Origin: Escherichia coli | GTDB lineage: Bacteria > Pseudomonadota > Gammaproteobacteria > Enterobacterales > Enterobacteriaceae | Strand: one strand, 5' to 3' | NCBI RefSeq assembly: GCF_003334405.1 | Contig: NZ_QOWM01000001.1 | DNA length: 64,000 nt | Shown here: positions 7,350-10,184 of the stretch, piece after piece | Layout of the letters: each line of letters starts with the position of its first letter | Numbering within the stretch: the stretch's first letter is position 1 | Translations under genes and position numbers: made by a program | Notes under the pieces: model-generated | What the model was told of the DNA's origin: nothing | Seen by the model: the letters and a program-made list of their open reading frames with translations, nothing else | Database searches by the model: none

Positions 7350-7377
7350 CCCCCTCATGATGAGGGGGCTTTTTTTA
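7350..7377 (+). terminator. Rho-independent terminator after yehA
   Basis: Hairpin ccccctca-tga-tgaggggg followed by seven T; the T-run overlaps the rcnB stop codon on the opposite strand. Confidence 0.75.
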
Positions 7378-7713
7378 GCGATGATAAAAAATCTCACCGT
7401 CGTAGGCTTTAATGATTTTACCGTCGGTGTCGCTGATCAACACGTACGCGCCACCCATATAGGTCCAGTGCGTCCCGGCATCAGGCGCGGGCAGGTTACG
7501 CAACTGCCACTGCTTAATGTTGTACTCATCGGTACGGTACATTTCTGGTACGGTGTCCCCTGGTTTGAAATGCTTAAAGTCAGCAATGAAACTACTTAAC
7601 TCATACTTAGAAATTCCCGAGGTATTGGTCGAACCCGCGGTGGCTGGTGCGGCCCAGGCGGCACTGGTAACCAGCAAAAGCGCACCCAGTAACATCTTAT
7701 TTTTAATGGTCAT
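7375..7713 (-). CDS. rcnB: periplasmic protein RcnB (nickel/cobalt homeostasis)
   Basis: ORF 7375..7938 but product matches RcnB from internal Met (MTIKNKMLLGALLLVTSAAWA..., 112 aa); signal peptide. Confidence 0.88.
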   Translation of the reverse strand: MTIKNKMLLGALLLVTSAAWAAPATAGSTNTSGISKYELSSFIADFKHFKPGDTVPEMYRTDEYNIKQWQLRNLPAPDAGTHWTYMGGAYVLISDTDGKIIKAYDGEIFYHR

Positions 7714-7934
7714 AAACTCTCCACTTTGGGGATCTGTAATATCAGTCGCATATCTTTCCTGCCATACAATATAACTGACAAGCGATATTTTGTTAGTGAT
7801 CCCATGATTTCGTAAAAAGTGTAAATGAAAGGATGCCCTAAAAGCATCCTTAGCGAGCAGAGAGTCAGCGGAAATAGCTGATTTAAGAATCATCCTGGGC
7901 TGAAGATAACATGCAAGCCTAAAGGATTGAGTTA

Positions 7935-8780
7935 TCACATTATGCCCATGAAGCCATGTACGCCCATATACACACCGACTAAGCCAATCAACAGACTGGA
8001 AAAATAGGGGGCGCGTTTAGCGAGAGTGTTAAATCCGCTCCAGCGTTTTGCGACCTGCTGAACGCTGATTGCTGCGCCAACGCCTACGGTGACAAGCGTA
8101 AACGCCAGGCCAATGCTGAAACTGACGACCAGTGTTGCGCCCAGTGTCAGGGCTTTCAACTGAATGCATATCAATAGCACGGTAATTGCTGCCGGGCAGG
8201 GGATAAGGCCACCGGTTAAGCCAAATAACAAAATTTGCCAGTTGGTGACCTCTCTACCATCAAAGCGTCGTTTAATGTCATTGGCATGGGCTCGTGCATG
8301 GGCATCCTGATACTCGCCATGTTCGTGATGGTGATGATGTCCATGGTCGTGGTGATGTTCGTGGTCTTGATGATGTTCGTGATCGTGATGATGGTGATGA
8401 TGCTCATAATCATACTCGTGCATATTCTCCAGCCAGTTGCGTTCGCCGCGCCAGGTACGCCAGAACATCCAGAACGCGGTGCCAATAATGATCACTGCGG
8501 AAATCAGCTGGAGCCACGGTTCTGCTGATTGAGCAGTAAAGCGCTTGCTGATCACCATCCCGCCAAAGGCAATTAACCAGACCACTGCGGTATGCGAAAT
8601 AGTTGCTGCCAGTCCGAGCATCACCGCTTGTTTAATGGTGCCTTTGATGGCGATGATAAACGCCGCCATCATCGTTTTTGAGTGCCCTGGTTCCAGGCCA
8701 TGAAGCGCACCAAGTAAGATGGCGCTGGGGATGAAGAACCAGGCGTTTCCTTGCTGAAGAAGAGTTGTAAATTCGGTCAT
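7935..8780 (-). CDS. rcnA: nickel/cobalt efflux transporter RcnA with His-rich loop
   Basis: 281 aa; MTEFTTLLQQGNAWFFIPSAILLGALHGLEPGHSK...; central loop HEYDYEHHHHHHDHEHHQDHEHHHDHGHHHHHEHGE. Confidence 0.95.
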   Translation of the reverse strand: MTEFTTLLQQGNAWFFIPSAILLGALHGLEPGHSKTMMAAFIIAIKGTIKQAVMLGLAATISHTAVVWLIAFGGMVISKRFTAQSAEPWLQLISAVIIIGTAFWMFWRTWRGERNWLENMHEYDYEHHHHHHDHEHHQDHEHHHDHGHHHHHEHGEYQDAHARAHANDIKRRFDGREVTNWQILLFGLTGGLIPCPAAITVLLICIQLKALTLGATLVVSFSIGLAFTLVTVGVGAAISVQQVAKRWSGFNTLAKRAPYFSSLLIGLVGVYMGVHGFMGIM

Positions 8781-8817: not shown

Positions 8818-8852
8818 TACTCCCCCCCAGTACCTGATACTACCCCCCAGTA
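8818..8852. promoter_or_regulatory. tandem RcnR operator sites (TACT-C/G tract-AGTA) in the rcnA/rcnR divergent promoter
   Basis: tactcccccccagta at 8818..8832 and tactaccccccagta at 8838..8852; matches the known RcnR recognition pattern TACT-G6-N-AGTA. Confidence 0.8.
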
Positions 8853-8900: not shown

Positions 8901-9173
8901 ATGTCTCATACAATCCGTGATAAACAGAAACTGAAAGCGCGTGCCAGTAAGATTCAGGGCCAGGTCGTGGCGCTCAAGAAAATGCTCGACGAGCCGCACG
9001 AATGCGCTGCAGTTTTACAACAGATTGCTGCTATCCGTGGCGCGGTAAACGGTCTGATGCGGGAAGTGATTAAAGGTCATCTGACGGAACACATCGTTCA
9101 CCAGGGGGATGAGCTAAAACGTGAAGAAGATCTGGATGTCGTTCTGAAGGTGCTGGATTCATATATCAAATAA
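8901..9173 (+). CDS. rcnR: Ni/Co-responsive repressor RcnR (CsoR/RcnR family)
   Basis: 90 aa [22 protein letters not shown]...; divergent from rcnA. Confidence 0.95.
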
Positions 9174-9254: not shown

Positions 9255-9395
9255 ATCATCGCAACCAAACGACTCGGGGTGCCCTTCTGCGTGAAGGCTG
9301 AGAAATACCCGTATCACCTGATCTGGATAATGCCAGCGTAGGGAAGTCACGGACCACCAGGTCATTGCTTCTTCACGTTATGGCAGGAGCAAACT
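9255..9395 (+). promoter_or_regulatory. TPP (THI-box) riboswitch in the thiM leader
   Basis: cgactcggggtgcccttctgcgtgaaggctgagaaatacccgtatcacctgatctggataatgccagcgtagggaagtc matches the thiM thiamine-pyrophosphate aptamer; ends at the thiM start codon. Confidence 0.9.
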
Positions 9396-10184
9396 ATGCA
9401 AGTCGACCTGCTGAGTTCCGCGCAATCTGCGCACACGTTACACCTTTTTCACCAACATTCCCCTCTTGTGCATTGCATGACCAACGATGTGGTGCAAACC
9501 TTTACTGCCAATACCTTGCTGGCGATCGGTGCATCGCCAGCGATGGTTATCGAAACCGAAGAGGCCAGTCAGTTTGCGGCTATCGCCAGTGCCTTGTTGA
9601 TTAACGTTGGCACACTGACGCAGCCACGCGCACAGGCGATGCGTGCTGCCGTTGAGCAAGCAAAAAGCTCTCAAACACCCTGGACGCTTGATCCAGTAGC
9701 GGTTGGTGCGCTCGATTATCGCCGCCATTTTTGTCATGAACTTTTATCTTTTAAACCGGCAGCGATACGTGGTAATGCTTCGGAAATCATGGCATTAGCT
9801 GGCGTTGCTAATGGTGGACGGGGAGTGGATACCACTGACGCCGCAGCTAACGCGATACCCGCTGCACAAACACTGGCACGGGAAACTGGCGCAATCGTCG
9901 TGGTCACTGGCGAGGTGGATTATGTTACCGATGGTCGTCGCACCGTTGGCATTCACGGCGGCGATCCGTTAATGGCCAAAGTGGTAGGAACTGGCTGTGC
10001 ATTATCGGCAGTTGTCGCTGCCTGCTGTGCGTTACCAGGCGATATGCTGGAAAATGTCGCATCTGCCTGTCACTGGATGAAACAAGCCGGAGAACGCGCA
10101 GTCGCCAGAAGCGAGGGGCCAGGCAGTTTTGTTCCACATTTCCTTGATGCGCTCTGGCAATTGACGCCGGAGGTGCAGGCATGA
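9396..10184 (+). CDS. thiM: hydroxyethylthiazole kinase
   Basis: 262 aa [33 protein letters not shown]...; follows THI-box. Confidence 0.95.

Follow-up and report, generated by a model that had tools for sequence, protein, structure and literature searches.

The histidine-rich loop of Escherichia coli RcnA: a degenerate 18-nt coding repeat with in-frame length polymorphism at the CVN007 typing locus

The rcnA locus and its histidine-rich tract

The stretch of DNA analysed, termed the window, comprises 64,000 nucleotides of an E. coli genome and contains the nickel and cobalt efflux gene rcnA flanked by rcnR and rcnB. The features of the locus are as follows.

7375..7713, minus strand: rcnB, gene of a periplasmic accessory protein, downstream of rcnA (coordinates carried over from the near-identical genome 300709)
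7935..8780, minus strand: coding sequence of rcnA, for a 281-aa nickel/cobalt efflux protein of the NicO family (ORF list, identity and profiles)
7935..7937, minus strand: TGA stop at the position of the K-12 CGA codon (Arg274), with the ancestral TAA directly after it (codon comparison)
8241..8450, minus strand: central hydrophilic segment of RcnA, residues ~111-180, between two hydrophobic halves, predicted cytoplasmic (Kyte-Doolittle scan)
8313..8420, minus strand: His-rich tract, residues 121-156, a degenerate coding repeat of 18-nt period and the variable part of CVN007
8385..8402, minus strand: perfect tandem (CATCATCAC)x2 encoding HHHHHH, the longest in the tract (offset 18)
8818..8852, no strand assigned: two RcnR operator-type TACT-C6/7-AGTA sites in the rcnR/rcnA intergenic region (pattern match)
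8901..9173, plus strand: rcnR, divergent Ni/Co-responsive repressor (NF011613, 197 bits against a cutoff of 138, and annotation)

The assignment of the gene to rcnA, made in an earlier note on this DNA, was confirmed by identity and profile searches. The deduced product was 100% identical with that of the RefSeq-annotated rcnA (WP_000134584.1) of E. coli 300709 and 042, matched the NCBIfam profile NF007454 (nickel/cobalt efflux transporter) over residues 1-281 with 563.4 bits against a cutoff of 195, and matched Pfam NicO (PF03824) over residues 13-281 with an E value of 5.4e-72. The product belongs to the RcnA/NicO family and is predicted to export Ni and Co. A search of the PDB with the RcnA sequence returned no relevant solved homologue. 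The rcnR-rcnA-rcnB arrangement is present in the window, and the RcnR operator-type sites between the divergent rcnR and rcnA agree with the published consensus TACT-G6-N-AGTA, described as occurring there in two copies (PMC7055735). The rcnB gene sits within a mechanical ORF at 7375..7938 and gave no match in the NCBIfam profile search at E <= 0.001. A TPP riboswitch is annotated upstream of thiM in 300709, and by offset from that annotation it would lie at ~9265..9361 in the window. The context differs in O157:H7 Z1816 (locus 327-998), where two small genes, one annotated as hypothetical and the other as 'outer membrane protein', stand beside rcnR at the position occupied in other strains by the TPP riboswitch, thiM and thiD.

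The earlier note had described a histidine-rich coding microsatellite of about 40 codons at 8290-8420. The peptide that it quoted is present exactly as residues 121-156 of the 281-aa ORF, HEYDYEHHHHHHDHEHHQDHEHHHDHGHHHHHEHGE, encoded at 8313..8420. The broader span does hold this peptide but also covers the following YQDAHARA, and the peptide amounts to 36 codons by count: CAT (12), CAC (9), GAA/GAG (6), GAT/GAC (4), TAT (2) and one each of CAA, GGA and GGC. Histidine accounts for 21 of these 36 residues versus 6 of the 245 in the remainder of RcnA. Three other low-complexity ORFs, at 8235..8528 (plus strand, 97 aa), 8294..8488 (plus strand, 64 aa) and 8216..8485 (minus strand, 89 aa), were treated as by-products because they overlap a conserved gene, and the note had likewise called those of the opposite strand spurious.

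The term microsatellite overstates the purity of the tract. Tandem Repeats Finder reported a period of 18 with 4.2 copies, 80% matches and a score of 101 and, less strongly, periods of 12 and 9 nt, with all periods at 73-90% match. The autocorrelation at lag 18 was 0.678, a value equalled in only 26 of 5000 codon shuffles, which indicates periodicity beyond that expected from composition. By the same procedure the perfect (CATCATCAC)x2 tandem was unexceptional for the composition, being equalled or beaten in 870 of 5000 shuffles. No perfect hexamer array was present in the tract of the window allele, in which the longest perfect tandem is two copies of 9 nt. The tract is a degenerate coding repeat of 18-nt period, roughly HHxDHE, that is cryptically simple and not a pure microsatellite.

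The placement of the tract in the protein is based on the hydropathy scan and on the published prediction that the central loop of RcnA is cytoplasmic (PMC11247825). The Kyte-Doolittle scan found no hydrophobic window in residues 111-180, and this 70-residue segment (residues ~111-180) contains 7 K+R, 16 D+E and 23 His. The loop may bind Ni and Co in the cytoplasm.

The CVN007 typing locus and allele lengths in complete genomes

CVN007 is one of the VNTR loci scored in the generic MLVA scheme for E. coli (Lindstedt et al. 2007; 7- and 10-locus GECM). The primers and the sizing formula, (product - 314)/18, were taken from PMC8143711 (Table 1), where the formula implies a repeat unit of 18 bp. 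Both primers were located in the window.

8500..8520, minus strand: CVN007 forward primer ACCGTGGCTCCAGYTGATTTC, exact match with 0 mismatches, 0 expected by chance
8128..8148, plus strand: CVN007 reverse primer ACCAGTGTTGCGCCCAGTGTC, exact match

Each primer is unique in the 64-kb window, and the two are convergent and bracket the tract with an amplicon of 393 bp at 8128..8520. CVN007 and the tract thus share both primers, the 18-bp period and a varying amplicon length. No paper naming the gene of CVN007 or linking CVN007 to yohM or rcnA was found in the literature searched, and the link between CVN007 and rcnA therefore rests on the primer mapping described here. PMC3777172, on MLVA loci of E. 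coli O157, was checked for the tract and gives no motif or gene information. The published alleles of CVN007 are 1 to 4; 87% of isolates carry allele 3, and the locus has little discriminatory power (PMC3407997). The polymorphism of the tract is therefore already known as a VNTR marker, and the window carries an uncommon allele of it, which is no discovery.

The tract of K-12 is HGHDYEHHHHDHEHHHDHGHHHHHEHGE, with 28 aa and 17 His, versus 36 aa in the window. The rcnA of JM109 is 825 nt and encodes 274 aa, in agreement with the K-12 length given in the earlier note, which had proposed that the 281-aa ORF contains a longer loop. The loop is indeed longer, although the alignment showed that the net gain of seven residues is composed of eight additional loop codons and the loss of one codon at the C-terminus. 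The latter is due to the CGA to TGA change, which removes the last residue so that the window protein ends in GFMGIM. The same change at the K-12 Arg274 codon was also found in CFS3246, a strain with the 384-bp allele. The two tracts differ in addition by substitutions (G122E, H123Y and an HHQDHE-type unit). Since substitutions as well as indels separate them, the K-12 and window alleles are regarded as old haplotypes that lie more than one slippage step apart.

The comparison of rcnA across E. coli genomes that the note had proposed was made over 5,426 complete genomes, with the 393-bp segment 8128-8520 as query, for which 5,364 genomes had a match. For rcnA, a match was obtained in 5,366 of the 5,426 genomes and none in the other 60. 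The matches to the segment fell into the following bands of identity.

At least 99%: 52 genomes (~1%), the 393-bp window allele, 46 of them at 100%
95-99%: 246 genomes (~5%), mostly a 384-bp form
90-95%: 4,833 genomes (~90%), the K-12 length of 369 bp being seen in 50 of 51 evenly sampled single-piece matches
80-90%: 233 genomes (~4%), the divergent O157 type

The loop is polymorphic in length, and the outcome that would have refuted the note, one and the same tract in K-12 as elsewhere in the species, was not obtained. Among 59 full-length matches sampled at even intervals, the amplicon was 369 bp in 50 and 354 bp in two, with one each of 393, 384, 381, 402, 396, 390 and 330 bp. The dominance of the 369-bp form in this sample agrees with the 87% published for CVN007 allele 3. 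Application of the sizing formula to the 369-bp product of K-12 gave 3.06, to the 393-bp product of the window 4.39, and to the sampled range of 330-402 bp 0.9-4.9. The published alleles 1 to 4 correspond to amplicons of 330-402 bp, and allele 3 to the K-12-length band of ~90%. The real alleles differ from the nominal scheme in that they are not separated by whole 18-bp steps but by steps of 3, 6, 9, 15, 27 and 54 bp.

All sampled tract alleles were in frame. Among complete genomes the tracts ranged from 15 to 39 aa, with lengths of 15 (MS 16-3), 23 (HB42), 27 (2020CK-00188), 28, 32 (A26), 33, 35, 36, 37 and 39 aa (O157 EC4115). The tract of HB42 contains (CACGAG)5, and for an rcnA with a tract shorter by 3 nt an amplicon of 366 bp is implied. 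The protein database yielded 41 distinct tract sequences of 28-54 aa among the top 120 representatives. The histidine count of the tract was 9 to 21 in complete genomes and up to 32 in database variants. Within these distributions the window represents a rare long allele (393 bp, 36-aa tract, 21 His) carried by ~1% of complete genomes.

Low-complexity repeats can be misassembled, and the additional 24 nt could be viewed as an assembly or sequencing artefact; this is scarcely credible, as 46 complete genomes, each sequenced independently, contain the 393-bp amplicon at 100% identity and 52 contain it at >=99%, and the 108-nt tract is far below the length of a sequencing read. The artefact was rejected on the recurrence of the allele in these 52 genomes. 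The repetitive coding tract in a non-essential gene, and the annotation of rcnA as frameshifted in CFS3313, would accord with a phase-variable contingency locus that toggles rcnA by frameshift. Such a switch is highly improbable and was also rejected, given that every repeat unit is a multiple of 3, that each tract allele sampled keeps the reading frame and that the sole frameshift met lies outside the tract: the lesion of CFS3313 is the loss of 1 nt in an A run at nt 102 (CTCAAAAAC to CTCAAAAC) versus a tract at nt 361-444. The rcnA of CFS3313 may be a true pseudogene, or the missing nucleotide may be a sequencing error in the homopolymer.

Several rcnA loci of unusual structure were encountered in the census. 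ZF31 retains just the first 111 nt of rcnA, adjoining yehA. An IS3-family element adjoins the rcnA of E. coli PCP06021 (NZ_CM129877.1, locus 1-1029), which is annotated as partial; the match begins at amplicon position 158 (approximately window position 8363), inside the His tract, and the N-terminal half is absent. A few E. coli genomes have two copies of rcnA, and one copy is plasmid-borne.

Single-unit changes, recombination and repeat purity

The first 25 kb of the window is 100% identical to several genomes (VG48B2, D53-1, 160-11H1 and others) and 99.9% identical to a porcine ETEC/O141 strain group in which the matched span is 8-10 bp shorter. P13-6 (O141:H4), itself 99.9% identical over 25 kb, was aligned with the window over 3.4 kb. 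The alignment contained 0 SNPs and a single 9-bp gap at 8394-8402 corresponding to exactly one CATCATCAC unit. The difference from P13-6 is a clean gain or loss of a single unit, a slippage-type event.

A second case was found in the O157-type alleles, present in 239 genomes, which differ from the window allele by many substitutions and a DNE insert. A perfect (GACCAC)n array is contained in these alleles, with 6 copies in 133 genomes and mostly 7 or 5 in the others. In a spread sample of matches at >=98.5% identity, 33, 16 and 5 alleles had 6, 7 and 5 copies respectively, and the GACCAC copy number was their sole difference. Derivatives of the window type with tandem insertions of 2, 9 and 18 residues (P0005, P0004 and P0001) were also present in the protein database.

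Comparison with more distant strains gave a different picture. E. coli 042 and SMN013SH2 carry the same 393-bp tract as the window, and their rcnA genes differ from that of the window by only 1-2 SNPs, although the 3.4-kb flanks differ by 43 and 78 SNPs respectively. For 042, 37 of the 43 SNPs are located at 9435-10010 in thiM (~580 bp, ~6% divergence) and the rcnA-rcnB region is almost identical. The cluster resembles either the sharp edge of a recombined segment or a polymorphism of long standing beside rcnR. Judged from these alignments, recombination clearly appears to carry rcnA alleles between backgrounds as well.

It is possible, though doubtful, that the length differences among strains, including that between the window and K-12, are mainly those of old divergent rcnA haplotypes spread by homologous recombination. 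This would account for the identical tracts of 042 and SMN013SH2 within sharply diverged flanks, thiM especially, for the many substitutions and the DNE insert of the O157-type allele, and for the mixture of substitutions and indels that separates the K-12 and window alleles. It does not account for P13-6, which is one 9-bp unit apart from the window with 0 SNPs over 3.4 kb, nor for O157-type alleles at >=98.5% identity that vary just in GACCAC copies, nor for the existence of window-type derivatives with perfect tandem duplications. Furthermore, recombination spreads alleles without explaining their origin, and is in this respect complementary to slippage.

Because the same tract persists within the diverged flanks of 042 and SMN013SH2, the mutation rate of the window allele is considered to be low. 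The claim in the earlier note that the tract is prone to slipped-strand length changes is upheld in that lengths differ among strains by multiples of 3; the presence of one tract in diverged backgrounds makes that instability relative. This persistence, together with the predominance of the 28-aa length, suggests that instability scales with repeat purity and that the window allele is only mildly unstable.

Related RcnA loops and interpretation

The counterpart of the tract in Salmonella is STTR5, a classic VNTR in yohM (= rcnA) described as lying 'between two domains', with a motif of CACGAC/ACCACG in 6-25 copies that changes within 50 passage generations (PMC1781188, PMC5183578, PMC3170611). 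STTR5 resembles the E. coli tract in residing in rcnA and in encoding His-Asp repeats with in-frame variation, and on the literature description it would also correspond in its location between two membrane domains. The hexamer of STTR5 is the same as that of the (GACCAC)5-7 arrays, and a perfect CACGAC/ACCACG array of at least 5-6 copies, which is a feature of STTR5, is thus present in the O157-type E. coli alleles (5-7 copies). STTR5 differs from the window allele in being a long, perfect and fast-mutating array, whereas the window allele, in which no perfect hexamer array is present, has the same tract in backgrounds that have diverged.

Histidine-rich cytoplasmic loops also occur in other metal transporters (CDF/ZnT and ZIP), where they are disordered, lie between transmembrane helices and may serve in binding or sensing the metal that is transported, in folds and families unrelated to RcnA. 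Within the RcnA family, a scan for (GACCAC)4 in contigs of one genome per species returned matches that, among those listed, were mostly from unrelated high-GC taxa, with none from Salmonella. RcnA homologues with a DH/HD repeat coded by (GACCAC)n in the corresponding central loop were found in at least four taxa, namely Citrobacter sp. Cu233, Thiolinea disciformis, a Beijerinckiaceae MAG and Mitsuaria chitosanitabida, with 36-71% identity and, as an example, the loop HDHDHDHDHDHDH. The HD expansion in these four homologues is either of repeated origin or an ancient retained repeat. The RcnA proteins of cable bacteria have expanded loops of 100-123 aa with 33-53 His, which have been read as an adaptation to a nickel-intensive lifestyle (PMC11247825). 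They belong to the same family as the E. coli protein, with the same predicted-cytoplasmic loop varying in length and histidine count, but the variation in cable bacteria is between genera while that in E. coli is confined to one species and to a much smaller range. The HD-repeat homologues and the cable-bacteria loops together point to length-variable histidine loops as a general property of the RcnA family.

The carriers of the 393-bp allele and of the O157-type 390-402-bp alleles are often bovine or STEC, an association that is confounded by phylogeny and sampling. This association has a bearing on whether loop length could be an adaptive tuning knob, with the number of histidines setting Ni/Co binding or the set-point of efflux and selection acting by niche, for example for long alleles in ruminant-associated or STEC lineages. 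The range of histidine counts (9-21 in complete genomes and up to 32 in database variants), the many carriers of long alleles from cattle or STEC, the greatly expanded loops of cable bacteria with their nickel-intensive lifestyle (PMC11247825), and the recurrence of HD-repeat expansions in the Citrobacter, Thiolinea, Beijerinckiaceae and Mitsuaria homologues are all consistent with tuning. Nevertheless the tuning explanation is unlikely, since the host association is confounded as stated and the ~90% of genomes in the band of 28-aa length would fit stabilising selection or neutrality equally well. No experiment showing that RcnA loop length affects Ni/Co handling was found in the literature searched, and the mechanism of RcnA has been described as incompletely understood (PMC11247825). 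Differences in loop length appear to be tolerated and are probably close to neutral.

The results taken together very probably identify the RcnA loop as a degenerate 18-nt coding repeat with an in-frame, slippage-type polymorphism, the same that is scored as CVN007. The tract encodes the central loop, rich in histidine and acidic residues, of RcnA, the Ni(II)/Co(II) exporter of the inner membrane. Its DNA consists of degenerate 18-nt units (roughly HHxDHE) in tandem and holds short perfect sub-repeats. Whole codons would be gained or lost via replication slippage or unequal exchange between the 18-nt units, the generating mechanism suggested by the P13-6 and O157-type comparisons. Only in-frame products would survive, frameshifted products presumably being purged through loss of the C-terminal membrane half of the transporter. 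The outcome is a species-wide in-frame polymorphism of loop length, in use as CVN007, of which the Salmonella STTR5 locus in yohM would be a purer and much faster counterpart, and in which the window allele is set apart from its nearest allele by one extra 9-bp CATCATCAC unit. The observation in the earlier note is confirmed by these results and its interpretation is supported, with qualifications regarding the purity of the repeat and the C-terminal codon.

For typing, the strain from which the window derives would be scored as CVN007 allele 4, unlike the common allele 3. For annotation, RcnA lengths of ~261 to 299 aa are to be expected and do not imply loss of function. Loop length, at 9 to >30 His in E. 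coli, might quantitatively set cytoplasmic Ni/Co buffering or the threshold of efflux and be selected by niche, with long alleles, the window allele and the O157 type among them, favoured in ruminant-associated lineages; this is quite improbable on the present comparative analysis, yet if it were true a 'neutral' typing marker would be a fast-evolving dial of metal homeostasis, as suggested for cable bacteria. The alleles may be arranged as a natural purity series, in which length hardly varies among the degenerate tracts of the K-12 type, tracts with a tandem of 2 x 9 nt undergo occasional single-unit changes, the (GACCAC)5-7 array varies among O157-type genomes, and the 6-25-copy array of Salmonella changes within tens of generations.
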